DNA from: a virus
Taxonomy: Duplodnaviria; Heunggongvirae; Uroviricota; Caudoviricetes
Reading direction: 5' to 3' (one strand)
DNA: 64,000 bases
IMG/VR virus record: IMGVR_UViG_3300010396_000001
Coordinates: 68,320 to 132,319 of that record
Under the pieces are notes generated by a model. That model did not search any database, had not been told where the DNA came from, and saw nothing but the letters and a program-made list of their open reading frames with translations. Made by a program: the position numbers and the translations under genes. Of the stretch, positions 17,033-62,502 are shown one piece after another. Numbering within the stretch: the stretch's first letter is position 1; each line of letters begins with the position of its first letter.

Positions 17033-17035
17033 CAT

Positions 17036-22890: not shown

Positions 22891-22994
22891 CAATTCTCAT
22901 TGCAGGAATCTGACGCCATTAGCGCCTTGCTTGCATGGCAGGGATCTTGCCCTATCATGCAGCTAAGCGATGCGTCTATATTCCGGGCGGTGGC

Positions 22995-30668: not shown

Positions 30669-30719
30669 GTGCTCCTCCTGCAGCAAGGGGGAGGGCCCTG
30701 GCTTTCCCTCATAACGGGA

Positions 30720-30935
30720 CAGCGACATGACCGAGAACGAGTCGGCGAAAGAACCTGCTAGACCATTGCTCTGCCAAGCTGAGCTACGTCCCGGTTTCCC
30801 GGGACGACAGGACTTGAACCTGCGACCCACGGTGGGATGAAGTAACTCTCACCTGCAGTCCGGTCACATCGCTATCCAGTTATGGGGCCCCGGAACGGGA
30901 TAGGAGCGCAGCGAAAACGATTCGGCGGCGGCATG
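30720..30935 (-). ncRNA. YrlA-type Y-RNA-like ncRNA with a permuted tRNA-like module (T-arm, GAAA-capped acceptor-like hairpin, D-arm)
   Basis: Minus strand reads GCAGGTTCAAGTCCTGT (T-arm), CGTCCCGG-gaaa-CCGGGACG, TAGCTCAGCTTGGCAGAGCA (D-arm) at 30755-30835. Flanked by gaagtaaC...cagtccgg and CCGA-nAACGAg-TCGG hairpin motifs. Confidence 0.5.
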
Positions 30936-30999: not shown

Positions 31000-31190
31000 G
31001 TGCCGATAACGAGTCGGCTGAGGAAACGTAGCGCTCTGCCAATTGAGCTACGCCCCGGTACCCCAGGGCGACGGGGCTCGAACCCGCACCTCTCACTTAT
31101 CAGGTGAAGTAACCCCTGCCTGTCAGTCCGGCACCCGCTAAGCCTTGAGCCCTCCCGATAACGAGTCGGCGGCGGTCTTGGCCTTCGAGC
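31000..31190 (-). ncRNA. second Y-RNA-like ncRNA with a permuted tRNA-like module
   Basis: Minus strand at 31025-31100: GTGCGGGTTCGAGCCCCGT (T-arm-like), CGCCCTGG-ggta-CCGGGGCG hairpin, TAGCTCAATTGGCAGAGCG (D-arm). Same flanking repeat motifs as unit 1. Confidence 0.45.
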
Positions 31191-37405: not shown

Positions 37406-37458
37406 GACAGTAGCCTATCAATGTTCCTTGTATTGTCAATCCGTACTAGGCTCTCCGC
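37406..37458. promoter_or_regulatory. divergent promoter region between the minus operon and the polyvalent-protein operon. Carries the conserved motif GCCTATCAATGTTCCTTGTA.
   Basis: 53-bp AT-richer spacer. The motif recurs in the 62334-62502 divergent region (GGCTATCAACATACCTTGCA). Confidence 0.35.
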
Positions 37459-37983
37459 ATGGATGATGAGCGGCCAATTCTAGGACTTGATGTAGACGGC
37501 GTCCTTAATGCCCTTAATCAGGGCGCCACGCCGCCCGGGTGGGAGTTCACCACGGTTCGCGGCAACCTGCCGATCTGCTATAACCCCCGCCACGGCGAGC
37601 AGCTGCAGAAGATCGCCTCCGACGGCGGCGCCGAGCTGGTCTGGTGCACCATCTGGGAGGACCTGGCCAACGAGCACATCGCCCCGCTGGTCGGCCTGCC
37701 GCAGCTGCCCTGGGTCACGATGGACGAGTCCATGGCCGCCGTGATCGCCGAGCGGCGCATCAAGTTCAGCCAGGCCATCCCGGTAGGCGCCGTCAAGGCA
37801 CGGGCCATGGCCGTCTATGCCGCGGGGCGCCCGGTGTGCTGGCTGGAGGACGAGCCGGACGCGCCCGCCGAGTTCAGCTCCTACCCGGCCCCGCACCTGG
37901 TGGTGCAGACCGACTCGTTCGAGGGGCTGCAGGATATCCACCTTGCCGCGGCAGCAGCATGGCTGGCGTCGCTGCGCGCCTGA
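37459..37983 (+). CDS. HAD-superfamily phosphatase-like protein
   Basis: ILGLDVDGVL (DxDGx motif I of the HAD fold) at the N-terminus. Confidence 0.6.
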   Translation: MDDERPILGLDVDGVLNALNQGATPPGWEFTTVRGNLPICYNPRHGEQLQKIASDGGAELVWCTIWEDLANEHIAPLVGLPQLPWVTMDESMAAVIAERRIKFSQAIPVGAVKARAMAVYAAGRPVCWLEDEPDAPAEFSSYPAPHLVVQTDSFEGLQDIHLAAAAAWLASLRA

Positions 37984-38014: not shown

Positions 38015-41000
38015 GTGCCTGATCCCCTGATTGCTGCCTTCAGCGACCCCCCTGACCTGGCCGCTCACTTCGGCGCCCGCGAGCGCTACCCCCGCGGCCA
38101 GTCACGCTGCGACTGCTGCGAGGGCAGCGGCAGCCACGGCCGCGACAAGTGCCGCCGCTGCCGCGGGCTGGGCCACGTGAAGGAGGGCTCGGCTGAGCCC
38201 TGGTGCGAGGAGTCGGAGGCGCCCCGGCCCCGCCGCCGGCACTGGCGGGAGAGCGAGCGCACCGCCTCGGACACCGGCTACCGCCAGTCGCACGAGGCGC
38301 CGGGCGATGACGACTACGGCGACCGGCTGCACGAGGTGGGCACGAAGCCCGGCGGCGGCATCTACCCGCCCGATGCCCTGAAGCGCCCGCATGACTACGG
38401 GGCCTTCCACTCCGAGACCGCCGACAAGGTGCGGCGGGCCAGCGGGAAGCCCGATCACAAGGTCTGGGTCTATCGCTCGATGCCCTCGCCGCACCGGGAG
38501 ATCAACACCGGCGACTGGGTGGCCACGGCCGCCGAGTATGCCCGCCAGCACGGCCGCGAGTCCAGCGCTGCCGACGACTGGCCGGTGATCAAGTTCCAGG
38601 CCCGCGCTGATCAGCTGTCCAGCGTCGGCGACATGGAGGAGTGGGGCTACCACGGTCCCCCGGTGAAGCGGGGCCTGGTGCACTTCAGGGGCGGCAGGAA
38701 CCAGCAGGGCGGCGTGCCCCGCGGCAAGACCGACGCCATGTGCCATGAGCACGAGCCGCAGGAGATGCAGGAGCACTACGGCCGGATCACGAACGAGCGC
38801 GTCAAGCGCCGGGGCGACGAGCGCGAGGCGCAGGGCCTGCCGCGGTACCGCACCCGGTCGCAGGGCGCCCGCCAGCCCTATGTGGTCTACCACGGGGCCC
38901 ACCATGACGACGTGCCCTCGATCCTGCGCGAGGGCCTGCGTCCCGGCATCCGCGGCGCCACGGTCACCGACAGCCGCGAGGGGGCCTCGCTGATCGCTCA
39001 CATGCGCGACTGGACCGACCCGCGGGTGGTCGAGATCCACGTCCCGCATGCCGAGCGCGACGCCTACCTCGGCGCTGGCCAGGACGGGCCCGAGGGCACC
39101 GCGCACGAGCTGCGCCGCCAGCTGCCCGCCAGCTGGGTGGCTCAGGTGCACACCGCCGCTTACGATGCGCCGCCGCGGGAGTATTCCGCCGGGCGCATGC
39201 TGGTGGCCGACATCAGGATCCCCGGCGAGGGACGGCTGTCCGAGCGCCCCTACACCCAGCGCGAGCTGGCCGCCGACATCCGGCGCAACGGCGTGCAGCA
39301 GCCCGTTGCCGTCGAGCACCTGCCCGCGCACGGCGGCCCGACCTCGTTCAACGGCATGCACCGCCTGGACGCCGCCCGCCGCGCCGGGGTCGCCGACGTG
39401 CCGGTGGTCGTCAAGCACCTGCCCGGCCAGCCCCCGCCCATGACCGGGCGCCGGGCGGCCAGCGAGCAGGAGTTTAACGATGCCTTCGACCTGGAGCGCG
39501 AGGGTCGGTGGGCCGGGCAGCACGAGGCGGCTCGCATCCTGCACCTCCCGCTGCACATGGTGAGCGAGATGGGCTCCGAGTACGGCCAGGATGAGCACGG
39601 CCGCCGGATCACCATGGCTGACATCGGGAAGTACTCTCCCGAGCGGATGGCGGATGAGCGCTACGCGCCAGCTGATCTGCGGGCCATGACTGAGAGCGTG
39701 CGCCGGGGCGGCGTCCGGAAGGCGCTGGACGTCGAGACAACCTCCGACGGGGACCGCGGCATCGTGCTGGACGGCACTCACCGGTACTGGGCAGCGGCCC
39801 AGGCCGGGCGCTCGCACGTGCCGGTGCGGTTCCACGGGCCTGACCCGGACCGGGCCCGCGCGCACTACCAGCAGCGCATCGAGAATGAGGAGCAGCGTCC
39901 CGGATCAGCGCGCACCGGGTCAGCTGAAGGACCCTGGTACCACGGCACCACTGATGAGTACGCGCCCGGCGACCAGATCGAGCACCACTACTGGAAGAAG
40001 TACCCGGACCGGCCTGATTTCCGCCAGCACAGCCCGCTGTACGTGACCGGGAACCCGTCCCTGGCCGCCCACATCGCCGACCTGCGGGAGCGCCAGTCCG
40101 GCCGCAGGGTGCCCGGCCGCATGTATGAAGTGAGGCCGTCCGGCTCCCTGTCCCCTGATGAGATCGCCGCCCCGATCGTGCGCAACCGTGATTCCTGGCA
40201 GGCGACCTCGCCGCTGCACGTGATCAGGGAAGTGCCCCGCGGGGAATGGCCGCAGGACCTGAGCGCCTGGCGCGTCACGCAGCAGCATGAGGGCCGCAGG
40301 CTGCCTGACTGGCTGGAGGAGACGTTCGAGCATGCGAGGAGCAGCCTGGCGAGCCTGCCCGCGTGGGCGCGCCCGGTGGTGACCCATCCAGCCCCCCGGC
40401 TATCTAGTCGCTCCGATGATCACCCTCCGCTTAGCCCGCAGCGCCATGACCAGGGACGGGTTTCAGGGTCAGCCGGCAGTGAGCATCGATCCGGGAGTGG
40501 TCATCCTCCGGTTACGGGCGCCCCCCGTATCAAGGTGCCTCTCGAAGGTGGCCACAACTGGGAGGAGAACCTGCGGCTGCTGCGTCATCGCAAGCGCAGT
40601 GAGCCCCTCATGCACCGGGGGATCGCGGTCGAGCTGCCGCCGGAGGTGCACAGCTTCGTTCATGATCAGTTCCAGGACCGGGACCGCCAGGCCCGTGCCA
40701 TCGCCGAGCACCTGCGCGGCCGTCCTCTCGGCATGCACTGGTCGGCCGGCGAGAAGACGCCCCGCCATTTCGCTGACTTCGAGAAGAAGAAGAGCCTGCC
40801 CGGCTCGACCAAGGTCATCCTGCACGCAGCCCTGCCCGAGGTTGATCACATCGAGACGGACCGGGAGAAGCTCGCCGAGGGCGGCGTGCTCGGCTACGGG
40901 GCCATGGGCAGCAGCGAGTACGAGATCCCGGTGAAGGCCGGGGCACCGGTGCGCATCAAGGGCATCACCTGGTATGGCTACGGCAACCGCAAGCGCAGCG

Positions 41001-43456
41001 GGAATCTCTACGATCACGTTCACGAGGCCAGCCTGCGCACTGCTGCGGTGCCTGAGTACGGCCTCCGGCCTGAGTTCCGGATGGCTCCCGAGGACTGGGA
41101 CGATGAGCGCCGCTCGGCCTATCACGAGCAGCAGTTCGGAGCCGAGCGTGCCTGGCGGCGCAGCATGCGCAACGGCCTGTCAATGGGCCACCTCACCAAC
41201 GAGCAGGCCCTGGGCCTGGGCTACCACGGCCGCGGTCATGATCAGTCCTCCTACCACGCCGGCCCGGCCTGGAAGCCGTTGCCGCATGACCTCTACCACG
41301 TCACCACCGACATGGAGGGCGTCCGCCGCCATGGCCTGCTGGCTCCCGATGAGCGTGAGAACTTCCGGCCCACTGGCCTCGGCGGCAGCGAGGACGACTC
41401 GGTCTCGCTGACCTCCAGCCACGAGCGGGCCCGCGGCATCCTGCGGGCGATGCGCGAGTATCACCACGCGCTGCACTCTGACCCGCATGAGCTGTGGGAG
41501 CGGGCGCAGAGGGGCGACCAGGGCTCGGAGCCCTTCCATCGTGACCTGGCCCGCTACCATGACCGCGACTGGGAGCCCGGCCAGGAGCTGCCCCGCGAGC
41601 TGAGCGACCAGCTGAACGGCACCCGGCATGAGCACGGCATGGCCACGCGCGAGGAGAAGCCAGGCTGGACCCCGCTCGACGAGGGCATGAAGACGCCGAG
41701 GGGGCACTACCACTTCGGCTGGGAGCGCCCGGCCACCGACGAGGAGAAGCTGCACCAGCGCTCGGACCTGTTCAAGCACTTCGTGGCCTACCGCGGCTGG
41801 GCGGGCGGCCCGGAGAACCCGACGTTCATGGGCAACGACCCGAAGGCGTTCAGCAAGCTCGATCCCTCGAACTTCGGCATCGTGCACCTGCATCCGCACC
41901 CCGGCGCCCAGGGCTACCACCTGCCCGCCGAGGACGAGTACCGGATCACCACCGGCAAGGCGGTCTACCCGCACCACTGGCAGCACGAGGCAGCCTCCCG
42001 CAAGATCGCGGCCTCCTCAGCTCCGCACCCGGGCCGCCTGCAGGGCGGCTCCTGCAGGGAGTACTGCACCTACGGCGGCACCCACTGCGCGGTCTGCCAC
42101 GAGCCGGTGAAGATCAACCTGCACAAGACCGAGGTCAACGGCGGCTGGCATCACCACGACAGCATCAAGCGCGACCACCCGGCCGTCCCCGCCGACCCGC
42201 AGGGCGTGATCGACTCGATCCCCGGCCAGCTGGCCAGCAGGGACCAGGTTCGCGCCGAGGTGGCTGACACCTTCCACCGCCAGCTGGAGGAGTACGGCGG
42301 CCGGCCGCTCCCCCGCCGCGGTGACGACCAGCTGCCCCCTGACCCGTTCACTCACGAGGGAGCGCGGGTGCCGTCCTCAGGCGCATCTTTTTACCGGGGC
42401 GGCCGGCAGGAATATCAGCCAGGTGACCTGATCTCGCCTCAAGATAGCACTCACGTCTATGCCACCTCTCATGCTGCCAATGCCAAGATGTATGGCCCGC
42501 ATGTTTATGAAGTGGAATTCACTGGTCCGCACGAGCCTGATCCGGAGTATCTCGGTAATGGTGCTTTCCGGCGCTCGGTGCATCCGGTGCGCGTGATCAG
42601 AGACGCGACGGAGCATGCCACGGCTGAGGTAGGCGCAAGGCATTTCGGCGCCTGGGTGCCCAGCTCAGGTGTCTTCGGTCCCACTACCGGCCTCGACCCG
42701 CAGCTCTTCACTGAGGCGCAGCAGCTGCGCCCGCAGGTCCGCGAGGCGATCCTGGAGCGCCTGGCGGTAAGCCTGCATCAGCTGCTTGGCGAGGGGTGGC
42801 AGTCCCTCGTCCGGGTCTACCTCGCGGGGGGGAGCGCCAGCGAGTGGGCTGGCGCCCGCCCAGGTGAGCAGGGGGCTCGTGATCTCGACGTCCTCATCGG
42901 CCCGCAGGACCCGCAGGGTCTCGCCCGGGAGACTGGCCACGACGGCGTGGCCGGGAGCGGTCCGCACGCCGTGGGTGAAGGCGAGCAGGTAGCTCAGGTC
43001 ATCAACCGCGTCCTGCGGGCTCACTTCAATGATGAGCACTGGCTCCCCGGTTTTGGCGGGTCCTGGTCCCTGACTGGCTATTACAATCCGCATGCCGGCG
43101 ACATTACCGCGATCCATCCGTATGCGGCCTGGGACCTGACGAACAGCCGGTGGGCCGTGAAGCCGCCGCATCTGCCGCACCACTCGGTGGCTGACTTCGA
43201 CCCGGCCGTGATCCGTCATGCACGGGCCATGGCCACCGAGGCCCGTGCCATCCTGCAGCTGCCCGAGCCGTTCCGTCACCAGCAGGCGAGGGACCTGTGG
43301 GACCGGCTGCACGCCGCCCGCTCGCGGGCCTTCTCCGACGAGGGCGCGGGCTGGCAGGATCCCGGTAACCTGGCCGAGAAGTGGCTGGCCTACAGCCCCC
43401 GCAATATCCTCGGCAGGATCAAGGAGCTGGCTCATGGCGCCGCCGGACCCGCTTGA
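38015..43456 (+). CDS. giant polyvalent protein (about 1814 aa): DnaJ-type CxxCxGxG zinc finger, two ParB-like domains, several Arr-like ADP-ribosyltransferase-like modules
   Basis: GTG at 38015 with RBS AGGAGG (the ORF start at 37817 is rejected because it overlaps the HAD gene). ParB-like GMHRLDAARRAGVADVPVVV (about 39290-39430) and LDGTHRYWAAAQAGRSHVPV (about 39700-39830). Arr-like HGT...PGD...YEV.P.G...VIR modules at about 39935-40245 and 42375-42610. Confidence 0.75.
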   Translation: MPDPLIAAFSDPPDLAAHFGARERYPRGQSRCDCCEGSGSHGRDKCRRCRGLGHVKEGSAEPWCEESEAPRPRRRHWRESERTASDTGYRQSHEAPGDDDYGDRLHEVGTKPGGGIYPPDALKRPHDYGAFHSETADKVRRASGKPDHKVWVYRSMPSPHREINTGDWVATAAEYARQHGRESSAADDWPVIKFQARADQLSSVGDMEEWGYHGPPVKRGLVHFRGGRNQQGGVPRGKTDAMCHEHEPQEMQEHYGRITNERVKRRGDEREAQGLPRYRTRSQGARQPYVVYHGAHHDDVPSILREGLRPGIRGATVTDSREGASLIAHMRDWTDPRVVEIHVPHAERDAYLGAGQDGPEGTAHELRRQLPASWVAQVHTAAYDAPPREYSAGRMLVADIRIPGEGRLSERPYTQRELAADIRRNGVQQPVAVEHLPAHGGPTSFNGMHRLDAARRAGVADVPVVVKHLPGQPPPMTGRRAASEQEFNDAFDLEREGRWAGQHEAARILHLPLHMVSEMGSEYGQDEHGRRITMADIGKYSPERMADERYAPADLRAMTESVRRGGVRKALDVETTSDGDRGIVLDGTHRYWAAAQAGRSHVPVRFHGPDPDRARAHYQQRIENEEQRPGSARTGSAEGPWYHGTTDEYAPGDQIEHHYWKKYPDRPDFRQHSPLYVTGNPSLAAHIADLRERQSGRRVPGRMYEVRPSGSLSPDEIAAPIVRNRDSWQATSPLHVIREVPRGEWPQDLSAWRVTQQHEGRRLPDWLEETFEHARSSLASLPAWARPVVTHPAPRLSSRSDDHPPLSPQRHDQGRVSGSAGSEHRSGSGHPPVTGAPRIKVPLEGGHNWEENLRLLRHRKRSEPLMHRGIAVELPPEVHSFVHDQFQDRDRQARAIAEHLRGRPLGMHWSAGEKTPRHFADFEKKKSLPGSTKVILHAALPEVDHIETDREKLAEGGVLGYGAMGSSEYEIPVKAGAPVRIKGITWYGYGNRKRSGNLYDHVHEASLRTAAVPEYGLRPEFRMAPEDWDDERRSAYHEQQFGAERAWRRSMRNGLSMGHLTNEQALGLGYHGRGHDQSSYHAGPAWKPLPHDLYHVTTDMEGVRRHGLLAPDERENFRPTGLGGSEDDSVSLTSSHERARGILRAMREYHHALHSDPHELWERAQRGDQGSEPFHRDLARYHDRDWEPGQELPRELSDQLNGTRHEHGMATREEKPGWTPLDEGMKTPRGHYHFGWERPATDEEKLHQRSDLFKHFVAYRGWAGGPENPTFMGNDPKAFSKLDPSNFGIVHLHPHPGAQGYHLPAEDEYRITTGKAVYPHHWQHEAASRKIAASSAPHPGRLQGGSCREYCTYGGTHCAVCHEPVKINLHKTEVNGGWHHHDSIKRDHPAVPADPQGVIDSIPGQLASRDQVRAEVADTFHRQLEEYGGRPLPRRGDDQLPPDPFTHEGARVPSSGASFYRGGRQEYQPGDLISPQDSTHVYATSHAANAKMYGPHVYEVEFTGPHEPDPEYLGNGAFRRSVHPVRVIRDATEHATAEVGARHFGAWVPSSGVFGPTTGLDPQLFTEAQQLRPQVREAILERLAVSLHQLLGEGWQSLVRVYLAGGSASEWAGARPGEQGARDLDVLIGPQDPQGLARETGHDGVAGSGPHAVGEGEQVAQVINRVLRAHFNDEHWLPGFGGSWSLTGYYNPHAGDITAIHPYAAWDLTNSRWAVKPPHLPHHSVADFDPAVIRHARAMATEARAILQLPEPFRHQQARDLWDRLHAARSRAFSDEGAGWQDPGNLAEKWLAYSPRNILGRIKELAHGAAGPA

Positions 43457-43680
43457 TCGAGACTGCCGACCATGCCGATCCCCTTGCTGCAGGCGGCTAC
43501 GTGGCTGCCGTCGGCAGCTTCCTGCTCGCCGCCATCGGCTTCGAGCCGGAGGGAAAGGCCGAGGTGATGATAGAGATCGGCGCCGATCCCGAGCCGGACA
43601 AGGCGCGCATCATCCTGAGCTGGCCGCTGCCTGAGCAGGGGCCCGCCACCACCGGCCAGGGGTGCCCGGAAGCCATGTGA
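43453..43680 (+). CDS. small hydrophobic protein (TTG start), uncertain
   Basis: TTG overlapping the upstream stop. High GC3. Its stop overlaps the GTG of the next giant gene (GTGA). Confidence 0.3.
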   Translation: MIETADHADPLAAGGYVAAVGSFLLAAIGFEPEGKAEVMIEIGADPEPDKARIILSWPLPEQGPATTGQGCPEAM

Positions 43681-46600
43681 CTGACCTGCTCGACCACTTC
43701 GCCGCGCCTGACCTCATGGAGCACTTCGGGGCCTACTACTATCACGGCACTAACCGGGACCTGAAGCCCGGCGACATGATCGAGCCGGGGCATGAGCAGG
43801 TCTGGGAGGGGTCGTCTCCGCATCACGTCTACATGACCCCCGACCACGACCTGGCGCACATGTACGCTGAGACGGCTGCCGCCATGAAGGAGCACGGCAG
43901 CCCTCGCGTCTACACCGTCGAGCCCACCGGCCCGCATGAGGACGACCCGGAGTTCGGCCGCGATGACGACGCCACTGAGGGCCTGGAGTCCTACCGGTCA
44001 GCTCACCCGCTGCGCGTGATCGAGGGCGCCGCCGACGCGGGCTTCCCCAATCCCTACCACGGCACCGCGCAGTTCGGCGGCCGTCCCGAGTGGTCTCGCA
44101 CGTGGTTCCACGGCACGAGGGGCGTCCCGGAGTTCGGCGAGCGCCGCGGGCACGGCGACGACGTCGCCCGGACGCGCCTCCCGTTCGGGGAGCGCATGAA
44201 GGGCAGCGGCTGGCCGCAGCCCAACCAGATGATGGGCGTGCACTTCAGCCCGCTGCATGAGGTGGCCCACAAGTTCGCGGGCTCGGTCTCCTCCACTCCG
44301 TCGGCGATCGTCCACGCCCGGCTGCACATGAGCAACCCGGCGCACTACCCCTCGGAGATGCACCTCAACTACGCAGTCGCGCACTGGGCCAGCCAGCATT
44401 ACCCGCACTGGCATGACCAGAAGGTCAATGATCACCTGGGCTGGAACTACTCCGACCGCGAGGGCACGCACCGCGACTTCTCCTCGGTACCGGACCGGAA
44501 GTACGCTCACGACAAGGCTCAGGACGTCCTCCAGTGGCACCCGCACCTGCCCGAGATCCTGCACGGCTTCCGGCAGCACCTGCGCGAGCAGGGCCACCGC
44601 GGCATCACCTACGGCAACAACGTCGAGGGCCCGTACGAGACCGATGCCACCCGCGGCGGCGAGGCGGGCATGAAGGCCATCCGCAAGCGCGAGGGCATGG
44701 GCGGCAGCCCGGTCTCGATCTCGGCGATCGTGCATCCGGGTGACATCGAGATCACTCATGCCGAGCACATCTCGCCCTGGCGCAAGGAGCCTGAGCCGCA
44801 CGAGCGCACCTGGGAGGCCGTCAGCGACGCCGACGAGCCCGACGAGATGCGCGACCGGGTCCTGGCCTGGCACCGCGAGCACGGCGGCGCCTACCCCCGC
44901 CAGGAGCGCACTGCCGCCCGCATGGCCGCCTCCGGGAGCCAGCTGGAAGGCCGTGACTACGAGGGCACCGAGGGCAACCCGAGCCACATCACGCGCACCG
45001 AGCTGGGCATGATCCGCACCGACGCCATCGCCGGGCTGCACGGGGTCAAGGGCGAGCGGCCCGGCGAGCACCGTAACCGGCAGGGCGCGAAGTGGGACGA
45101 GTTCAAGCAGGACATCGCGAGTAACGGCATCAGGCACCCGGTCTTCATCACCGTTGATCACGGCGAGGAGCCGAAGATCAGCGAGGGCAATCACCGGCGG
45201 GACGCCGCGGTCGAGCTGGGCCACAGCCACGTGCCGGCCGAGATCACCTACTTCGGCCATGCCGAGCGCGCGGGCACCGTGGAGTCCAGGGGCCTGTCCC
45301 GGCACAGCCGCCAGCGCATTGACGAGCACCTGCGCACCCATAACTGGTGCGCCCAGTGCAGCCGCGACGTCCGCAAGGACGAGTGGGCCCGGCACGTGAA
45401 TGATCATCACCGGACGGCTGCCCGCTCCCCGGTCATGTATCACGCCTCGCCTTACCACAACCGGGCCGGTATCGCCCGGCTGCACCCGCACACTGCAGCG
45501 GCTGGCCGCGTCTGGTACCACGGCACGCCTGACGAGCGGACCTGGGAGCACGGCGCCGGATATGGCATTCACATCGGTACCGAGGATGCTGCACGCCAGG
45601 CGCTGCATGCCCGCATTGGCAAGCCGGCTGAGGGCGAGTGGGATGGCACCCGTGAGTACGGCAAGACACTGCTGAACCGGGATCAGCGCCGCTGGGAATG
45701 GAAAGACGGCAAGATGACCGATCATGTCGATCATCATCCGCCGTCTTATCCAGATCCGGAAGGAGGCCCGTCATATTCGGGCGGCGAGCGCATTCCCATG
45801 GATGCGCGCCCGAGTGTCTTCCCGGTGCATATCAAGGGCCCGATGACAAATACCCCTGATAATCCGCACCCGGACTTTCATGCCAATGGTTACATGCACG
45901 GGCAGATTAAGCGCGGGAGAGCAAAGTCGGGGTACTTCTATACAAATGTCAGCGAGGACGAGGGATCTATCTCTGCGGTTGTTCCCTCGGCTGCGCACCT
46001 GGAGCGCATTCACCCGCCGCATGAGGCCGCGCGCAGGACTACGGCGGTATCGCACTGGCAGCACCGCGACTGCGGCGTCTATGCCTATGCCCTGACCCAG
46101 AAGGACCCGGCCCTGCGGATCGGCGAGCTGAGTGAAGAAGAGCACAAGATGCTCCCGGCTGCACACCGCCATATCCGAGAGAACAAGGTCCTGGGAGATC
46201 GCGGCCAGAAGACCGCTAAAAGCGAGAAGCCGACGCGCTCGAAGGCCAGCGTTAATTACCGGCATGCCACGGGAAAGCACCGGTGCGGCAACTGCGTGAT
46301 GTTCCGGCTGCATTCCCCGGACTTCGAGTCAGGCGGCTGCACCCTGGTGAAGGGAGCGATTAAGGCAAGCGATACCTGCGATAAGTGGTATCCGCAGGAT
46401 AAGGCGAGTAAGAGCGGGGGCCTGCTTGCCCACTTCGGCGCGGCCGAGGACGACGAGCCCAACCGGGCCGTTCATGCGCTGGTTGAGCACAGGGTCAGCC
46501 AGCAGCACCCCGAGGTGAATGAGCCCGTCACCGATCACACCGCCACGCTGCGGGCGATGCTCGGCCGGGCCAGCTTCTTCATGCCCCGCGAGGAGATCGA

Positions 46601-49600
46601 CTCTGCCACCGCCGGGCCCGAGCACGGGCAGACCACTCAGGAGCTGGCCCACCACGCCGCCCACGTGATGACGGGCAGGCGCCAGGCGCGGGAGGAAGCG
46701 CAGCCCCGCGAGGCCTGGGACCGGCGCGTGCGCCCGAGCGAGAAGGATCCTGACGAGCGCCGCCACGGCAAGGACTTCACCTGGCACTATGCCCTGGCCC
46801 TCGACGGCGCCGGGCACCCGGACGCGGCCGACACTGCCCGCCATCATTACCCCGAGGCCCAGGTGCAGGTGGCCCATGAGCGCCACGCCCGCGGCCTGTC
46901 CCGCGACTTCCCCGGCAGCGGCCTGAGCCCCGACATGCCCCCGGACCTGAGCCACCTGCCCCCGATGATCCCCGCCCAGCGCGAGGGCCTTGCGGCGTGG
47001 GATTCCCGCGACTACAGCCGCCGGATGCTGGACGTTGCCCGTGACCCGCAGCCCGGCCTGCGGCTGTGGCGCGGCGAGCGCCGGCCCGCCGCCGATGACG
47101 TCCCCGGCGCGTCCTCGGTCGGCATGCACTGGAGCGCCAAGCCCGAGGCCGTGATCACCGCCCGCGACCGCGGCGACGACACGCGCCCGGTGGTCTGGCA
47201 GGCCCGGCTGGAGCACCCGGACTCCCAGGCCATCCCGCGCTCGCACCCCGTCTGGCGGGGCATCCACCAGTCCATGGACTCCGAGGCCGAGGTGCGGCTG
47301 CGCCCCGGCTCCTCCGTCCACGTCGAGGGCGCCTGGGTCGGTCCCTCCGGGCAGGACAGCACGGTGCACCCGCTTCACCCCGAGCGCAACCCGCCAGGCT
47401 GGAAGTGGCACCCGGTCGGCCGCCACGTCCCGGTCAGCAACCGGCCCGGCGAGCACTCCATGATTGACTACACCGACGCCGGATTCCCGCGCGAGGGCCT
47501 GCTGGAGCACTTCGGCGCCGTCTCCACCCCGTGCCAGACGCCGGGCACCATGTACTCCACCGATATCGGCGAGGACGGCGACGGCCACCTCCAGGTGAGC
47601 ACGCGCACCACGCTGCCCATGGCCGTCGATCTTGATGAGGCCGGGGCGCGGCTGCTGGAAGACCAGCTGCACAACACCACCGAGCTGGTCCTCGCACCGT
47701 ACTTCCGCAAGGATGCCCTGCTGGAGCATTTCGCCACGTATGGCGAGGGCGCGCAGCAGCCCGTCATCCCGGCCAGCCAGTTCCCGAAGGCTCACCTGCC
47801 CCGCACCTGGCGCCACGAGGACGCCAGCCAGGAGTTCCTCAATCGCCTGATGAAGGGCGTCGGGAAAGACGAGCCGATGGAGCCCGTCCGCCCCGTCCGC
47901 GGTCACGACGAGGAGCGCATCCGGGACCTGGAGCCGAGGATCCGCGGCCGCAACGAGCGCAACATGCGCCGCGAGATGGGCGAGCACCTGAAGGGCGATA
48001 ACCCGCTGGCCGAGGCCCTCGACAAGGGCGGCGCCGAGCACAGCGCCGAGGAGCGCGAGCGCGAGCACGGCACGGGCTATGACACCAGCCAGGCCAGCGG
48101 CGTGCCCCTCCAGCCCCGCGGCTACGGGAGCGAGGTGCACCTGCGGTCGTCCTGGCACATGGCCGAGGCGCCGCTGATGAAGCACATCGAGGGCGGCAGC
48201 TGGCCCGACGATGCGACACGCGAGCAGTTCGAGCGCCGCCGCGGCTACGGCCGCAAGCGGGTACGGCGCCTGTGGGAGCGCGCCACCGGCAAGCCTCTGG
48301 CCTGCGAGCACGAGTCCTGCCCGCCGTGGGAGCACCGCGAGGGGCACACGGCTGGCAGGATCGGCCTCATGGCACACTTCGGCTCCTCCGACGGCGACCG
48401 GTTCGTCACCTGCGATCAGGGCCACGACCACTGGGGCGCCTATGGCGCGGCCGGCCTGCTGGTCCGCCACAAGGATCCCCGCGACGGCCGCCAGCGCTAC
48501 CTGCTGCAGAAGCGCTCCCCGTGGGTCCAGCACGGCAGCACCTGGTCCACGCCGGGCGGGGCGATCGGCCAGCACGAGACCCCCGAGGCCGGGGCGATGC
48601 GCGAGGCCCGCGAGGAGCTGGGCCCGCTGCCCCGTGACCTGACCCACCACCACACCGTGACTGATGATCATGGCGGCTGGAAGTACCACACCGTGGTCAT
48701 GGACTCGCCCGGGCGCTTCACCACCCGCGGCGGAGACGACGGCGAGACCGCGGGCTCGGGCTGGTTCACCCACGAGGAGATGCAGAGCCTGCGGCTGCAC
48801 CCCGGCTTCGCGAAGTCCTGGGACACCGTGCGCCGGTCGCGAGTCGATAAGGAAGCCATCCGGCACTGGGATGACAAGACCGCGGGCGGTGTCTACCTCC
48901 GGTTCGGGCACTGGCCTGAGGACGAGCACTCGCGCAACAACGTGACCGGCTTCCGCGAGGAGGGCGTCAGCACTTACGACCTTGATCATGAGGGCCACCC
49001 GAAGGACCCTGATCCCGGCGCCGAGCGCGGCCATTTCCACGATGAGAGCTGCGCGCCGGACTGTGACTTTGACCTGGACAATGAGGATTACGGAAACGAC
49101 ACCCGCGAGGAAATGGAGGGCCGGGTGCGCCGGGCCGAGCGCAACCGGTATGAGGGCCGCGATATCAAGGGCGAGACCGCGCACCTGGTTCGCGGCGACT
49201 TGGCGGGCCTGGGCCACGACGCCGAGCCGATCCTGCGTAACGTGCGCCGGGTTGGCGACTGGATTGATCACCGGCACCTGTTCATCCCCGGTGCGAAGCC
49301 CCACCGGCTGGCTCGCAGCCCGCACGACGAGGACTACGAGCCGCCCGAGGAAGCGCCGCCAGCTCACCACACCGCTGCCTCGGGCTACGACCTCAGCCCC
49401 GGCTCGGGCATGATCAGCCTCGACATCCCGCCCGGCACGATCGAGCCCCATCCCGGCGGCGTCGATGATCACCACATCACCGTGGCGTACCTCGGCAAGG
49501 GCCTGGACGATGAGGCCTACTCGAAGGCCTGCCACCGCGCCCGCGAGGCTGCCGCCTCGGTGCCGGGCCCGTTCGGCGCCGTGCTGCACGGCCTGGGCAC

Positions 49601-49862
49601 CTTCCCGCCGTCGGACTCCTCGGACGGCAAGGTGCCGCTCTACATGAACGTGCACGCGCTCGTCCCGCACATGAGCATGCTGCGTGACCAGCTGGCGGAC
49701 CTGTCGGCCTCCGAGCACAAGGACTGGAAGCCGCACGTCACCCTGGCCTACCTGGAGCCGGGCGAGCAGCTGCCGCCGGAGCGGCGCCCGGCTGGCATCC
49801 GGTTCACGCACCTGTCGGTGCACCGCGGCGATGACACTGCGCGCTTCCCGCTCGGCGGATAG
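43677..49862 (+). CDS. giant polyvalent protein (about 2060 aa): N-terminal Arr-like ADP-ribosyltransferase, ParB-like domain, Nudix hydrolase, C-terminal 2H phosphoesterase
   Basis: Arr-like YYYHGTNRDLKPGDMIEPG...VYTVEPTGPHEDDPEF...HPLRVIEG (43730-44030). ParB-like EGNHRRDAAVELGHSHVP (about 45180-45250). Nudix box GGAIGQHETPEAGAMREAREELG (about 48550-48620). Two HxT motifs HITVAYLG / HVTLAYL (49470-49760). Start GTG at 43677, or alternatively 43662. Confidence 0.75.
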   Translation: MTDLLDHFAAPDLMEHFGAYYYHGTNRDLKPGDMIEPGHEQVWEGSSPHHVYMTPDHDLAHMYAETAAAMKEHGSPRVYTVEPTGPHEDDPEFGRDDDATEGLESYRSAHPLRVIEGAADAGFPNPYHGTAQFGGRPEWSRTWFHGTRGVPEFGERRGHGDDVARTRLPFGERMKGSGWPQPNQMMGVHFSPLHEVAHKFAGSVSSTPSAIVHARLHMSNPAHYPSEMHLNYAVAHWASQHYPHWHDQKVNDHLGWNYSDREGTHRDFSSVPDRKYAHDKAQDVLQWHPHLPEILHGFRQHLREQGHRGITYGNNVEGPYETDATRGGEAGMKAIRKREGMGGSPVSISAIVHPGDIEITHAEHISPWRKEPEPHERTWEAVSDADEPDEMRDRVLAWHREHGGAYPRQERTAARMAASGSQLEGRDYEGTEGNPSHITRTELGMIRTDAIAGLHGVKGERPGEHRNRQGAKWDEFKQDIASNGIRHPVFITVDHGEEPKISEGNHRRDAAVELGHSHVPAEITYFGHAERAGTVESRGLSRHSRQRIDEHLRTHNWCAQCSRDVRKDEWARHVNDHHRTAARSPVMYHASPYHNRAGIARLHPHTAAAGRVWYHGTPDERTWEHGAGYGIHIGTEDAARQALHARIGKPAEGEWDGTREYGKTLLNRDQRRWEWKDGKMTDHVDHHPPSYPDPEGGPSYSGGERIPMDARPSVFPVHIKGPMTNTPDNPHPDFHANGYMHGQIKRGRAKSGYFYTNVSEDEGSISAVVPSAAHLERIHPPHEAARRTTAVSHWQHRDCGVYAYALTQKDPALRIGELSEEEHKMLPAAHRHIRENKVLGDRGQKTAKSEKPTRSKASVNYRHATGKHRCGNCVMFRLHSPDFESGGCTLVKGAIKASDTCDKWYPQDKASKSGGLLAHFGAAEDDEPNRAVHALVEHRVSQQHPEVNEPVTDHTATLRAMLGRASFFMPREEIDSATAGPEHGQTTQELAHHAAHVMTGRRQAREEAQPREAWDRRVRPSEKDPDERRHGKDFTWHYALALDGAGHPDAADTARHHYPEAQVQVAHERHARGLSRDFPGSGLSPDMPPDLSHLPPMIPAQREGLAAWDSRDYSRRMLDVARDPQPGLRLWRGERRPAADDVPGASSVGMHWSAKPEAVITARDRGDDTRPVVWQARLEHPDSQAIPRSHPVWRGIHQSMDSEAEVRLRPGSSVHVEGAWVGPSGQDSTVHPLHPERNPPGWKWHPVGRHVPVSNRPGEHSMIDYTDAGFPREGLLEHFGAVSTPCQTPGTMYSTDIGEDGDGHLQVSTRTTLPMAVDLDEAGARLLEDQLHNTTELVLAPYFRKDALLEHFATYGEGAQQPVIPASQFPKAHLPRTWRHEDASQEFLNRLMKGVGKDEPMEPVRPVRGHDEERIRDLEPRIRGRNERNMRREMGEHLKGDNPLAEALDKGGAEHSAEEREREHGTGYDTSQASGVPLQPRGYGSEVHLRSSWHMAEAPLMKHIEGGSWPDDATREQFERRRGYGRKRVRRLWERATGKPLACEHESCPPWEHREGHTAGRIGLMAHFGSSDGDRFVTCDQGHDHWGAYGAAGLLVRHKDPRDGRQRYLLQKRSPWVQHGSTWSTPGGAIGQHETPEAGAMREAREELGPLPRDLTHHHTVTDDHGGWKYHTVVMDSPGRFTTRGGDDGETAGSGWFTHEEMQSLRLHPGFAKSWDTVRRSRVDKEAIRHWDDKTAGGVYLRFGHWPEDEHSRNNVTGFREEGVSTYDLDHEGHPKDPDPGAERGHFHDESCAPDCDFDLDNEDYGNDTREEMEGRVRRAERNRYEGRDIKGETAHLVRGDLAGLGHDAEPILRNVRRVGDWIDHRHLFIPGAKPHRLARSPHDEDYEPPEEAPPAHHTAASGYDLSPGSGMISLDIPPGTIEPHPGGVDDHHITVAYLGKGLDDEAYSKACHRAREAAASVPGPFGAVLHGLGTFPPSDSSDGKVPLYMNVHALVPHMSMLRDQLADLSASEHKDWKPHVTLAYLEPGEQLPPERRPAGIRFTHLSVHRGDDTARFPLGG

Positions 49863-49871
49863 GCTCGCGCC

Positions 49872-50099
49872 ATGATCGTTGTCTATGCCGTCACCCTGAG
49901 CCTGCCCGATGACGCTGCGATTGACGAGGCCGACCGGCGCCTGAGCGCCCTGGTCACCGAGCTGGATCCCGGCACGGCGCTCCTGCAGCGCAGCGTCTCC
50001 GAGAAGAAGCCTGACTACCGGGCCGCGGGCCTGCTGCACGGCGGCGAGCCCCGCCTCGGGGGCGCCATCCCGATAGCGGGAGCGGCCGTCGGGGGCTAG
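49872..50099 (+). CDS. small hypothetical protein
   Basis: 75-aa ORF between the giant gene and the AAA gene. Confidence 0.3.
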   Translation: MIVVYAVTLSLPDDAAIDEADRRLSALVTELDPGTALLQRSVSEKKPDYRAAGLLHGGEPRLGGAIPIAGAAVGG

Positions 50100-50101
50100 G
50101 C

Positions 50102-51385
50102 TTGCCCGCCGTGACCTCGCATACCATCTTCGACCCCGATGACGACGCGCCCCCGGTCTCTGACCTGATCACCCTGCTGAGGGAGCGGGCGCCCCGGATC
50201 GCGCTCAGCCTGGCCGCGGGACAGGCTGCCTGGCCGGCCGTGCAGTGGGCCCGCGAGCAGGTGAAGGACCGCTTCACCTACACCGTGAAGATCCCCGGCA
50301 CCGACGTCCTGTACGACATCCTGCACGAGTGGGTGCTCTCCCGGCTGGAGACCAGCCGCCAGCGCGCCCTGGTCGCCTGGTCAGGCCATATGTACGGGCT
50401 CATCGCCCCCGACAGCTCGCGCACCCGCGCCCCCATCCCGTCGCTGCGGCTGCGCTACGACGGCTCGCGCGAGCAGGTCGTCATGCTGGGCCAGTACAAG
50501 ATCCGGGTCTCGGTGACCGAGTACGACGTCACCACGTCCGCCCAGCGGGAGAAGCCACCGGAGATCATCTTCACGATGCGCTCGGCCGGCGCCCGTGACG
50601 CCTTCCTGACGATGCTGGCTGACCTGCTGCGCCACCACCACGAGGCTGAGCGCAAGCCCGCGTTCCGGATGCTGGACACCTGGGGCGACTGGGCCAAGCT
50701 CGACGACCTGCCGCCGCGGGCCCTGGACAGCGTCGTGCTGCCGAAGGGCCAGCTGGAGCGCCTGGCCGCTGATGTCCAGCGGTTCCTGGACTCTGAGGAG
50801 GTGTACGTCCGGCGCTCCCTGCCCTGGCACCGGGGGCACCTGTACGAGGGACCGCCCGGCACCGGCAAGACCTCGGTCGCCCGCGCCCTGGCCAGCCACT
50901 TCGGGCTCGACCTGTGGTACCTGCCGCTGGCCGACGTCAAGAAGGACAGCGAGCTGATCGGCATGCTGCGCTCGATCGGCCCGCGCTCCATGCTGCTGCT
51001 GGAGGACATCGACGTCTTCCACGCCGCTACCAAGCGCACCGACGAGGAGGGCGGCCTGACGCTGTCCGGGCTGCTGAACGCCCTGGACGGCATCGCCACC
51101 CCGCACGGGCTGCTGACCGTGGCCACGACCAACAAGCCCGGCGTGCTCGACGACGCCGTGGACCGGCCCGGCCGCCTGGACCTGCGCGAGCACTTCGGCC
51201 TCGCCGGCGACGACCAGGCCGCCCGGCTCGTCGAGCGGTTCTACGGAGAGGTCCTGACCATGGAGGAGTCCGAGGGGCTCGGCGGCCTGGTCCCGGCCGC
51301 GATCGTGGAGACCTGCAAGCTGCATGAGGACATGCGCGATGCCGCGGACTCACTGCGCCGGCAGCTGCGCCCCCTGGTGGGCTAG
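50102..51385 (+). CDS. AAA+ ATPase (classical AAA, BCS1/FtsH-like) with an uncharacterised N-terminal domain
   Basis: LYEGPPGTGKTSVARALA (Walker A), LLLEDIDV (Walker B), TTNKPGVLDDAVDRPGRLD (second region of homology with Arg finger). TTG/GTG start region at 50102-50111. Confidence 0.8.
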   Translation: MPAVTSHTIFDPDDDAPPVSDLITLLRERAPRIALSLAAGQAAWPAVQWAREQVKDRFTYTVKIPGTDVLYDILHEWVLSRLETSRQRALVAWSGHMYGLIAPDSSRTRAPIPSLRLRYDGSREQVVMLGQYKIRVSVTEYDVTTSAQREKPPEIIFTMRSAGARDAFLTMLADLLRHHHEAERKPAFRMLDTWGDWAKLDDLPPRALDSVVLPKGQLERLAADVQRFLDSEEVYVRRSLPWHRGHLYEGPPGTGKTSVARALASHFGLDLWYLPLADVKKDSELIGMLRSIGPRSMLLLEDIDVFHAATKRTDEEGGLTLSGLLNALDGIATPHGLLTVATTNKPGVLDDAVDRPGRLDLREHFGLAGDDQAARLVERFYGEVLTMEESEGLGGLVPAAIVETCKLHEDMRDAADSLRRQLRPLVG

Positions 51386-61465: not shown

Positions 61466-61887
61466 TAGACCTGCGGGGCCGTGCTACGGCGCCTGCGCTT
61501 TCCTCCCGTGCGCATGCCGGGTGCCCTGGTGCTGCCCCGCGGCAGGTCGTGCGCGTCCTCGAAGGCGTCATGAACCGGGCGCGGGATCCGGTGGCCGCCG
61601 CCGGGCAGCGCCTTGACCTCGAAACCCTGGGCTGCCGCCCAGTCACGGATGATCTGCAGCTGGGCCCGGCGGGCGGCCGGGCTGGCCAGTGCCGAGGACC
61701 TGGGCTCGTCCACCTTGCGGCCGAGCTTCAGGTACCGCTCGGAGATGCGGGCCAGCTCGTTGTAGCTGCGCTCGCCCAGGTCCAGCTCGACGGTGGTGCC
61801 GTCGAAGCTGAACCGGACGCCGTGATGGGTGGCCGGGACTTTCCCTGTCTCCAGGTCATCCCAGACGAGGACCGAGATCTCGCGCAT
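61462..61887 (-). CDS. lsr2: Lsr2-like nucleoid-associated protein
   Basis: N-terminal dimerisation-like VLVWDDLETGKV...FSFDGTTVELDLGERSYNEL. C-terminal AT-hook-like RGR-containing DNA-binding region QIIRDWAAAQGFEVKALPGGGHRIPRPVHDAFEDAH. Confidence 0.7.
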   Translation of the reverse strand: MREISVLVWDDLETGKVPATHHGVRFSFDGTTVELDLGERSYNELARISERYLKLGRKVDEPRSSALASPAARRAQLQIIRDWAAAQGFEVKALPGGGHRIPRPVHDAFEDAHDLPRGSTRAPGMRTGGKRRRRSTAPQVY

Positions 61888-62333: not shown

Positions 62334-62502
62334 GTGACTCCTGCCTCCGTGATCGAGGATGCCATGTACCTGACTCTGCGAGAGCCGCCGGGCCGCTGCC
62401 CTGCGGTTTCCTCTCTCGATGTCATGAGGCTATCAACATACCTTGCAGTCGGTCAAAGAGATGCTCCGTGCTCGGAAGACAGGAGGAGAAAAGGAGCCCG
62501 CG
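62334..62502. promoter_or_regulatory. divergent intergenic region carrying a second copy of the GSCTATCAAYRTWCCTTGYA motif
   Basis: GGCTATCAACATACCTTGCA at 62415-62435. RBS AAGGAG before the GTG at 62503. Confidence 0.3.

Follow-up and report, generated by a model that had tools for sequence, protein, structure and literature searches.

Tandem giant proteins of an actinobacterial phage are mosaics of exchangeable modules rich in ADP-ribosyltransferase domains: candidate polyvalent effectors

The window analyzed here is a 64-kb stretch (64,000 nucleotides [nt]) of an uncultured tailed phage (Caudoviricetes), positions 68,320 to 132,319 of IMG/VR record IMGVR_UViG_3300010396_000001. It carries two giant genes in tandem, here called gene 1 and gene 2, whose two polypeptides contain 11 plus 12 recognized modules from at least 10 families. 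At least 7 of these 23 modules are members of the NAD-dependent ADP-ribosyltransferase (ART) superfamily: three are Arr-like, one is an Arr-related module of the H-Y-E type, one is ART-PolyVal-like, and two belong to the R-S-ExE clade. We think it probable that the giants are polyvalent effectors, about 23 compact modules arranged like beads on a string, which are delivered by the virion and are possibly cut into separate enzymes. The concept of polyvalent proteins, and of their proteolytic processing, was set out by Iyer, Burroughs, Anand, de Souza, and Aravind in 2017 (PMC5512222). A preliminary description of our sequence, made from its letters alone, had placed the giants in that class, and they fit it: they are encoded by a phage, combine many unrelated domains, and include the hallmark domains of the ART, ParB, 2H, and (degenerate in this copy) zincin types. 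The class is known; what is new here is that the proteins are dominated by ARTs with Arr-like modules, come as tandem pairs, have sharp module borders, and carry a junction motif behind portable leaders.

Module borders were placed where homology to 72 relatives breaks off; both proteins were tiled accordingly, and one iterated profile per tile then resolved 11 modules for gene 1 and 12 for gene 2 (Table 1). Pfam matches were judged by Pfam's own cutoffs, and searches of PHROGs, PDB profile searches, hhalign comparisons, and our own family profiles were added. Structure models were made for single modules; a long AlphaFold2 run was dropped because MAFFT smeared fragments of the multi-module alignment across the query. 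The matches above the Pfam cutoffs were ParB_N (amino acids [aa] 416-470; 35 bits versus a cutoff of 26.3) and Arr-ms (aa 641-740; 28.9 bits) in gene 1, and Arr-ms (aa 26-121; 66.5 bits), NUDIX (aa 1607-1715; 52.8 bits), and 2_5_RNA_ligase2 (aa 1938-2037; 32.8 bits) in gene 2. The second ParB domain and the second Arr-like module of gene 1, and the ParB domain of gene 2, fell under the Pfam cutoffs and were recovered by PHROGs and the family profiles.

The preliminary description had reported two tandem giant open reading frames (ORFs) of about 1,814 and 2,060 aa, had read both as mosaics of enzyme domains, and had named profile searches with Arr-ms, ParBc, NUDIX, and 2H families as the check. 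The ORFs are present at 1,813 and 2,061 aa, and the scores just given, together with the family profiles, bear out the mosaic, with the three Arr-like and three ParB-like domains that had been proposed. In gene 1, the DnaJ-type CxxCxGxG finger is there in two copies, as a sub-threshold Pfam match (DnaJ_CXXCXGXG, E = 0.002); one of the two ParB/Srx-like domains exceeds the Pfam cutoff and the other was found through PHROGs and its profile; and the several Arr signatures resolve into module 1, above the cutoff, and module 2, found with the family profile and carrying YRGG. In gene 2, the Arr-like module at the N terminus has its triad, the "second HGT module" corresponds to module M2, which is ART-PolyVal-like, and the ParB-like domain was recovered by its family profile and EGNHR motif, with Pfam sub-threshold. 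The Nudix box GAIGQHETPEAGAMREAREELGP is intact at aa 1628, and so are both HxT motifs of the C-terminal 2H phosphoesterase (HIT at 1933 and HVT at 2020). That description had overlooked the two R-S-ExE modules, the ART-PolyVal-like identity of M2, a degenerate zincin, a DUF6098-like module, a probable nucleotidyltransferase, the junction motif, and the leaders.

The same modules recur in a family of giant proteins. Its 74 relatives, 1,187 to 3,585 aa long, come from soil-type metagenomes, and several are on contigs of about 160 to 167 kb. They hold the same ~20 module families in every order and copy number, with up to 18 recognized modules in one protein and with GNAT modules as additions seen in relatives; as judged by sequence comparison, modules are freely exchanged among them. 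In two related phages (three loci, L001, L002, and L003, of which the last two are the same phage), the giants again form a tandem pair, and the first giant of L001 opens exactly as gene 1 does, with the leader and then the CxxCxGxG finger. In cultured relatives, only two modules were detectable, each as a separate small gene. One is the "ParB C-terminal domain" module, which tblastn located on its own in phages of Mycobacterium, Gordonia, and Rhodococcus; the other is the module at the C terminus of gene 1, which Streptomyces phages (BRock and others) encode by itself as hypothetical proteins. Catalytic motifs are kept in the family: counted over homologous proteins, the Arr His is present in 137/145 copies, the Nudix box in 22/30, the 2H motifs in 38/41, those of the gene 2 type of R-S-ExE module (RSE2) in 27/27, and the ParB motif in 86/99. 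This family-wide upkeep of catalytic motifs favors active enzymes over a structural repeat protein.

The ADP-ribose theme that the preliminary description had seen in the combination of ART, Nudix, and 2H domains is real and stronger than it first appeared. To the seven ART modules, M8 and M4 may add two more, on weak evidence. M8 has a possible ART-like core around LYHVTTD; M4 matched the Arr profile by hhalign at 38% over 14 columns and had no Pfam match. The R-S-ExE modules qualify as ART folds, with the Arg, Ser/Thr, and ExE motifs in order in both genes, the motif order of the R-S-E clade to which the cholera and pertussis toxins belong. The modules of gene 1 and gene 2 matched each other by hhalign at 99% (E = 5e-18), and the gene 1 motifs are kept in 41/57 family copies. 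Neither R-S-E nor RSE2 had a Pfam match or a PDB profile match, and a comparison by hhalign of the R-S-E profile with the segment of protein P0050 that matches ADPrib_exo_Tox was negative (probability of 7.6%). The R-S-E modules form a family of their own, with about 420 clusters, which is nearly confined to such giants, and the short single-module proteins of this family are flanked by the same junction motif as the giants. The H-Y-E module of gene 1 gave weak Pfam matches to Tpt1/KptA (E = 0.0026) and to PARP. The M2 homologue in relative P0048 overlaps an ART-PolyVal match (E = 4e-6; 28.1 bits versus a cutoff of 31.2). An HEVAH sequence in M2 (aa 194) was considered as a zincin site and rejected: its position seems equivalent to that of GMHWS/GIHIGT in other ART-like modules, and it is missing from the P0048 homologue.

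Among the other modules, the Nudix hydrolase resembles RenU (PDB 6uuf), a mycobacterial hydrolase, and is predicted to act on ADP-ribose or NADH-type pyrophosphates; the 2H domain is predicted to act on 2',3'-cyclic or 2'-5' phosphoesters. The three ParB/Srx-like domains are of the NTPase/nuclease type. The C-terminal module of gene 1 is nucleotidyltransferase-like, with an invariant GGS...DxD on a core that its structure model shows as helix-strand-loop-strand followed by helices. A PDB profile search with this module gave no match, and Foldseek returned no significant one, its list consisting mostly of Pol-beta-type nucleotidyltransferases (AadA, CD-NTases, CCA-adding enzyme, and TENTs). The family of M6 has HExxH followed by HG..[FW] in 19/24 copies and one weak Pfam SprT-like match (E = 0.08); the PDB profile search with M6 gave no match.

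Table 1. Giant genes, their modules, and neighboring features. Positions are those of the window; aa numbers are those of the respective giant protein.
Feature	Position	Strand	Details
Giant gene 1	38015..43456	+	1,813 aa; 11 recognized modules
Leader MPDPLIAAFSDPPDLAAHFGA and DnaJ-type zinc finger	38015..38251	+	Finger aa 16-79; two CxxCxGxG; 12 relatives
"ParB C-terminal domain" module (PHROGs)	38264..38698	+	aa 84-228; phrog_2579, E = 9e-31 (match aa 75-218)
H-Y-E type ART-like module, Arr-related	38861..39157	+	aa 283-381; VVYHGAHH...; hhalign to Arr profile 96%, E = 6e-9
Two ParB/Srx-like domains	39188..39898	+	aa 392-489 (NGMHR) and aa 529-628 (DGTHR); PHROG ParB families and family profiles
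Arr-like module 1	39911..40249	+	aa 633-745; HGT...Y...D kept; Arr-ms 28.9 bits versus cutoff 25
R-S-ExE clade ART module	40562..41026	+	aa 850-1004; R868, S910, E968/E970
Module M8	41036..41989	+	aa 1008-1325; 7 relatives; hhalign to the H-Y-E module (HYE1) 60%; no Pfam match
Cys/His-rich segment	42002..42364	+	aa 1330-1450; no counterpart among relatives in the set; no Pfam match
Arr-like module 2	42347..42649	+	aa 1445-1545; YRGG for YHGT (NAD-site His to Arg)
C-terminal module, nucleotidyltransferase-like (GGS...DLD), and helical domain	42650..43432	+	aa 1546-1806
Giant gene 2	43677..49862	+	2,061 aa; 12 recognized modules; GTG start
Leader MTDLLDHFAAPDLMEHFGA and Arr-like ART	43677..44051	+	aa 15-125; H/Y/D triad intact; Arr-ms 66.5 bits, E = 2.6e-18
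Module M2, ART-PolyVal-like	44049..44888	+	aa 125-404; WFHGTRG...GVHFS; hhalign to R-S-E profile 88%, to Arr 59%
ParB/Srx-like domain	44937..45299	+	aa 421-541; EGNHR; family profile E = 5e-53; ParB_N E = 0.033, sub-threshold
Module M4	45495..46031	+	aa 607-785; VWYHGTPDE...GIHIGT, ART-like N-terminal motif only; 15 relatives
Four-Cys module resembling high-potential iron-sulfur proteins	46209..46409	+	aa 845-911; HIPIP E = 0.022, sub-threshold; PDB 3h31 E = 0.047
Module M6, SprT-like zincin metallopeptidase signature	46452..46931	+	aa 926-1085; here HHAAH...HGKDF (catalytic Glu to His)
Second R-S-ExE ART module	46968..47498	+	aa 1098-1274; R1132, S1153, E1203/E1205; motifs in 27/27 family copies
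Module M8b and unique segment M9b	47517..48371	+	aa 1281-1344 and aa 1350-1565; LLEHFGA-type motifs at borders of both
Nudix hydrolase	48390..48842	+	aa 1572-1722; NUDIX 52.8 bits versus cutoff 21.1; PDB 6uuf RenU E = 9e-24
Module M11, DUF6098-like	48876..49346	+	aa 1734-1890; DUF6098 E = 6.6e-5, sub-threshold; 4/4 family members scanned match
2H phosphoesterase	49389..49859	+	aa 1905-2061; 2_5_RNA_ligase2 32.8 bits versus cutoff 27
18-nt motif CTATCAATGTTCCTTGTA	37415..37432	+	AT-rich divergent intergenic region upstream of operon
HAD-family phosphatase (HAD_SAK_2 type)	37459..37983	+	PF18143 E = 1e-7; 32.9 bits versus cutoff 27.5
Small ORF between giants	43453..43680	+	75 aa; TTG start; one hydrophobic stretch; 4-nt overlap with each giant
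Second small ORF	49872..50099	+	75 aa; coding-like composition; no family match in Pfam/PHROGs
AAA+ ATPase	50102..51385	+	AAA 61.2 bits; BCS1_N 22.3 bits versus cutoff 28.1, over 55 residues; phrog_7485 E = 7e-50

Short recurrent sequences mark the module borders. LLxHFGA occurs in 8 copies in the window, all of them in the giants, at both N termini and at module borders. Of 338 tight junctions, 231 contain [HRK]x[AG][AS], which is 4.9 times denser there than inside modules, and an unsupervised expectation-maximization search of the junction sequences returned [RKH]-[TE]-A-[AS]. Outside modules, the latter motif was observed 320 times versus 21 expected by shuffling (z of about 72), and the counts of two permuted control motifs were at expectation. 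The two window proteins have 15 strong matches, of which 13 are at module borders, 1 is in the N-terminal leader of gene 2, and 1 is inside the 2H module. Codon choice at the motif is free, which places the constraint on the peptide rather than the DNA and led us to reject the motif as a DNA-level recombination signal. Junction residues had low values of the predicted local distance difference test (pLDDT) in both structure models.

In front of the first module stand leaders of three kinds, the MPDLMAHFGA type, the MGGxxxPKSLxP...[TE]AA type, and the MFQGKSxxPNTGFLDK type. They are kept whichever module comes first, with at least 7 different first modules behind them. The family also has two conserved C-terminal tails.

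The surroundings of the giants bear on how they might be used. The large terminase gene (26580-28856; phrog_2) and the portal gene (763 aa; phrog_2833, E = 7e-142) flank them, all on one strand; the portal gene lies 17.5 kb downstream of gene 2, just beyond the window, and was read from another assembly of this phage. The pair of giants in L001 and L002 is immediately preceded by the terminase gene and a small ORF, and the order behind the giants in the related phages is that of the window: small genes, then a UDG gene, followed in L001 by a protein of about 1,270 aa. In a different phage, known from a 25-kb contig (L005:2618-10521), a portal protein carries fused Arr and ParB modules, and the next gene joins MuF to NUDIX and ADPrib_exo_Tox. 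Because the giants lie between the terminase and portal genes, because they are next to the terminase in relatives, and because the same module families are fused to head proteins elsewhere, we infer that delivery of the giants in the virion is plausible.

If so, the giants would be made late, as their location between terminase and portal genes suggests, and would be packaged in the capsid and reach the host along with the DNA. There, the transferases would modify host proteins, nucleic acids, or small molecules, and the Nudix, 2H, and HAD activities would then trim ADP-ribose-derived or RNA-end products. The outcome would be that defenses based on nicotinamide adenine dinucleotide (NAD) and ADP-ribose, and those that cleave RNA, are blunted, or that the host is taken over. 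More speculatively, the leader may be a targeting peptide and the junction motif a protease site that releases the modules as separate enzymes; the zincins of relatives, which have a canonical HExxH in 19/24 family copies, could do the cutting there. In its full form, which we regard as doubtful and offer tentatively, this proposal has the leader take chains of about 200 kDa into the prohead, where a protease would cut each [RKH]-[TE]-A-[AS] between the A and the [AS], so that more than 20 enzymes, including 7 to 9 ARTs, would be freed and injected. Such a junction "grammar" would let modules swap in frame between phages, as a plug-and-play arsenal.

The T4 prohead protease cuts after Glu in L/I-x-E. 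In T4, an R-S-E ART and anti-defense proteins (Alt and IPI-III) are carried in the head and injected, and a short N-terminal peptide, the capsid-targeting sequence, is common to unrelated cargo (PMC3012670), which is like what we propose for the giants. The T4 cargo consists of separate small proteins, whereas the giants concatenate their modules and differ in their putative cleavage motif. The Dar proteins of P1 are a further precedent for capsid-carried proteins that enter the host with the DNA. The prohead protease also processes ejection proteins of phiKZ and SPN3US (PMC10052503, for head proteins of the latter). Many head-internal proteins of these phages share a short consensus at which they are cut, sometimes at several sites per protein, but what happens there is removal of propeptides from separate proteins and not release of modules, and lineage and motif are unrelated to those of the giants. 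The MuF- and portal-fused toxins of temperate phages, such as that of L005, place the same module families (Arr, ParB, Nudix, and ADPrib_exo_Tox-type ART) on head proteins; the giants have no recognizable MuF or portal part, and the portal is a separate gene.

The polyvalent proteins of PMC5512222 are closest to the giants. Like the giants, they have many unrelated effector domains per polypeptide and are encoded by phages near head genes, and the repertoires overlap in ART, ParB-type, 2H, putative Pol-beta nucleotidyltransferase, zincin peptidase, and (in the relatives of the giants) GNAT domains. Unlike them, the giants are dominated by ARTs, including Arr-like modules (the word "rifampin" is not in that paper), have 11 or 12 modules each (18 in one relative), always come as two in tandem, and have a regular junction motif and conserved leaders. 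No MuF, RNA polymerase, SNF2, or methylase domain was found in the giants, and their zincin lacks the catalytic Glu.

Several observations weigh against delivery and processing of this kind. In this phage, the terminase gene and the giants are parted by an ~8.5-kb block on the opposite strand. Searches of the giants, including one with the portal part of protein P0049, found neither a MuF nor a portal domain. The LLxHFGA leader was absent from all other genes in the available ~74 kb from this genome and in L001, L002, L005, and L006, and so is unlike a general cargo tag. If internal cleavage were strongly avoided, the junction motif should be depleted inside modules; we sought such depletion and found none (47 observed versus 21 expected), which counts against cleavage. 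The only zincin of the window proteins has HHAAH and not HExxH; self-processing is therefore doubtful here, so that cleavage would call for another protease, and none could be linked to the junction motif. In addition, the assignments of M2, M6, the C-terminal nucleotidyltransferase-like module, the HiPIP-like module, and M11 rest on sub-threshold or motif-level matches, and the family counts given above do not represent independent events.

The giants might instead work uncleaved, [RKH][TE]A[AS] and LLxHFGA being a flexible linker or module cap that is inherited with the modules and eases their in-frame joining. We take this seriously, while holding it to be short of probable. The motif is indeed short and Ala-rich like many linkers, and both its frequency inside modules and the loss of the catalytic Glu from the gene 2 zincin would be expected; moreover, the N4 virion RNA polymerase, a polyvalent protein, is packaged unprocessed (PMC5512222). 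But many proteins have a copy of the motif in their first 10 to 20 residues, where there is nothing to link, and its sequence-specific conservation (basic, T/E, A, A/S), with codons free to vary, exceeds the needs of a spacer. The predominance of canonical HExxH among the family zincins also speaks against it.

At the right edge of the window (63688-64000, plus strand, continuing to L006:16024-16563) is a 179-aa ORF that matches phrog_1128 (E = 3.6e-13) and nothing in Pfam or PDB. Visual inspection shows a His...Cys pattern (EHACFYAGG...ICSQL) like that of permuted papain-like (NlpC/P60, YiiX-type) enzymes, and its product could be a peptidase or a cell-wall amidase. It was considered as a candidate junction protease, which could not be established.

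A second alternative is that the giants are never packaged and act in the infected cell as multi-enzyme proteins of NAD/ADP-ribose and RNA-end metabolism, in counter-defense or RNA repair, together with the HAD_SAK_2 and Ro60-like gene products. It draws on the fact that HAD_SAK_2, a family named for RNA-repair proteins, opens the operon, on the TROVE/Ro60 gene and Y-RNA-like element 7 kb upstream, on the 2H and Nudix modules and the Tpt1-like hint, which are typical of RNA-end and ADP-ribose processing, and on the lack of a MuF or portal domain. We take it seriously but find it unlikely, because R-S-ExE transferases of the toxin type and several ParB domains are no repair enzymes, because the pair directly follows the large terminase in relatives and its module families are fused to portal and MuF elsewhere, and because the conserved N-terminal leader is left unexplained.

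A third alternative concerns the targets of the Arr-like modules. Residues H19, Y49, and D84 of Arr-ms are reportedly important. Their equivalents are kept in Arr-like module 1 of gene 1 and in the gene 2 module, which aligned with solved rifampin ADP-ribosyltransferases (PDB 2hw2 and 9iaf) at E of about 1e-10 for the full-length query and 4e-12 for the module by itself; they are not kept in Arr-like module 2 of gene 1. The latter was sub-threshold with Arr-ms (18.3 bits, E = 0.0027) and matched the family profile at E = 1.7e-30, and its His-to-Arg change is found in only 2 of the 145 Arr-like module sequences in the profile alignment. The alignment of the gene 2 module, with its triad kept, would suit modules that act on small molecules (rifamycin-like antibiotics or the diffusible metabolites that actinomycetes use against phages) rather than host macromolecules, and the stand-alone Arr proteins of Microbacterium and Gordonia phages have been interpreted in this way (PMC9503650). 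This does not seem likely to us for the giants: one protein has at least 4 Arr copies and the family has 145 diverged Arr sequences in 74 proteins, which suggests many targets, and identity to Arr is low (phmmer E of about 4e-12 over ~100 residues). The modules are of the same small ART fold family as Arr (PDB 2hw2) and the stand-alone phage Arr proteins, but they are embedded in 200-kDa proteins as several diverged copies, one of them with Arg in place of the His.

Polyvalent proteins are predicted, barely tested phage weapons, and this lineage is an unusually regular case. Module borders are clear and shuffling is seen in at least 74 giant proteins, ART domains are exceptionally concentrated, and the junction motif and portable leaders could be directly tested for a role in processing and targeting. 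Should the junctions prove to be cleavage sites, they would represent a polyprotein strategy in a tailed phage and a simple rule for engineering capsid cargo. The giants also provide, in their modules, a catalogue of candidate anti-defense enzymes against NAD/ADP-ribose-based and RNA-targeting immunity in actinobacteria.

The gene behind the giants had been described as a BCS1-like AAA+ ATPase, perhaps an unfoldase or loader. Its AAA domain is solid, but the BCS1_N similarity is sub-threshold; the gene caller starts this ORF 9 nt later than 50102. The gene is on the same strand, 240 nt downstream of gene 2, which with its AAA domain and weak BCS1_N similarity could suggest a dedicated unfoldase or loader of the giants. 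We consider such a role improbable. No AAA gene is found beside the giant pair in L001, L002, or L003, although other synteny is kept, and homologues are scattered in large Microbacterium, Rhodococcus, Caulobacter, Pseudomonas, and other phages without such giants. We therefore treat the AAA gene as a neighbor and not as a conserved component.

That the giant ORFs are GC-rich artifacts or structural repeat proteins of a fiber- or tape-measure-like kind is refuted for practical purposes: long spurious ORFs are common at 68% GC, as the 1,236-aa antisense ORF at 46329-50039 illustrates, but the giants have coding-type codon GC, above-threshold enzyme domains with intact motifs, 74 homologues, and identical proteins in independent assemblies. 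In both giants, GC at the third codon position (GC3) is 0.86 to 0.88 and GC at the second (GC2) is ~0.5, as in real genes of this sequence, and the long antisense ORFs fail by this measure. The identical proteins are P0001 and P0055, on contigs of 160,709 and 160,727 bp. Codon-position GC and these identical proteins together indicate that the coordinates and sizes first given for the giants are correct. Gene 1, the small ORF with the TTG start, gene 2, and the AAA+ ORF are real coding genes.

The giants belong to a run of plus-strand genes from 37.4 to 51.4 kb, which begins after an AT-rich divergent intergenic region. An operon starting at a divergent promoter with a conserved motif had been proposed; the divergent region and a recurring motif are there, but the first gene of the operon is that for the HAD_SAK_2 phosphatase and not gene 1, and no consensus promoter was detected. 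In Rhodococcus phage E3, a HAD-like gene is also found shortly past the large terminase gene. The 18-nt motif CTATCAAYRTWCCTTGYA has two copies, both on the plus strand (37415-37432 and 62430-62447), in the only two divergent AT-rich regions examined; these 2 matches compare with 0.01 expected, but the pattern was derived from these very two sites. The shared motif is a candidate promoter or operator element. Scans for sigma-70 consensus promoters and for terminators around the operon found nothing.

The best start of gene 1 is the GTG at 38015, which has AGGAGG 7 nt upstream and gives the N terminus MPDPLIAAFSDPPDLAAHFGA, as in relatives. The ORF at 43453-43680, noted early as a small hydrophobic ORF separating the giants, has one hydrophobic stretch and is coding-like (GC3 of 0.83); it overlaps the gene 1 stop in TTGA, and the GTG start of gene 2 at 43677 overlaps it in GTGA. 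L001 and L002 have no ORF between the giants, because their giants overlap directly.

The window has a GC content of 63 to 75%, 68% overall. Its large terminase has distant relatives in Mycobacterium cluster-C-type, Rhodococcus E3, and Gordonia phages. The terminase is ~30% identical, and a PurA/PurZ-like adenylosuccinate synthetase homologue 45% identical, to proteins of actinobacterial phages of ~135 to 165 kb (Mycobacterium phages such as Tonenili, I3, and Cane17, Rhodococcus phage E3, and Gordonia phages). When 8 kb of the region was compared by Megablast with 50,697 phage records plus plasmids, no close DNA relative was found. The host of this ~160-kb phage is actinobacterial. An ORF at 61462-61887 on the minus strand (L006:13798-14223) has a weak Pfam match on record to Lsr2, an actinobacterial nucleoid-associated protein, which is consistent with such a host. 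The synthetase homologue (16896-18332, plus strand) shares its 45% identity with Mycobacterium phage genes (Tonenili, I3, and others) annotated as "PurA-like" or "2-aminooxy adenylosuccinate synthetase"; a modified purine pathway of the 2-aminoadenine type is a possibility in this phage.

Further products of the window are PrimPol/D5, DNA polymerase III alpha, RecA, a flap nuclease, a Band-7 protein, and the Ro60-like TROVE protein. The TROVE gene (28926-30848, minus strand; Pfam E = 9.6e-15; phrog_850) lies ~7 kb upstream of the operon. Immediately upstream of it on the same strand (31033-31138), ARAGORN called a "tRNA-Ile" where there is also a weak Rfam match to YrlA, a Y RNA-like element (26.9 bits, E = 0.0014, versus a gathering score of 69). 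The two are probably a phage Ro60/Y-RNA pair. A 453-aa protein encoded at 22923-24284 (plus strand) has a sub-threshold ParB_N match (E = 1e-4), so that the phage also has a stand-alone ParB-like gene outside the giants.

Downstream of the operon, at 57665-61465 (plus strand), is the gene for a conserved 1,266-aa protein with Cys-rich repeats (CKxC...GSC at ~58978-59121) and no Pfam or PHROG match; its L001 counterpart of ~1,285 aa is in the same place. A "tRNA-Arg" called by ARAGORN at 61087-61166 (minus strand) is inside this gene and is probably false. At the left edge of the window (85-303, plus strand) are 3 to 4 tandem copies of a 60-nt repeat, 65 to 90% identical, in a GC-rich region where no ORF passed the codon-position GC filter.

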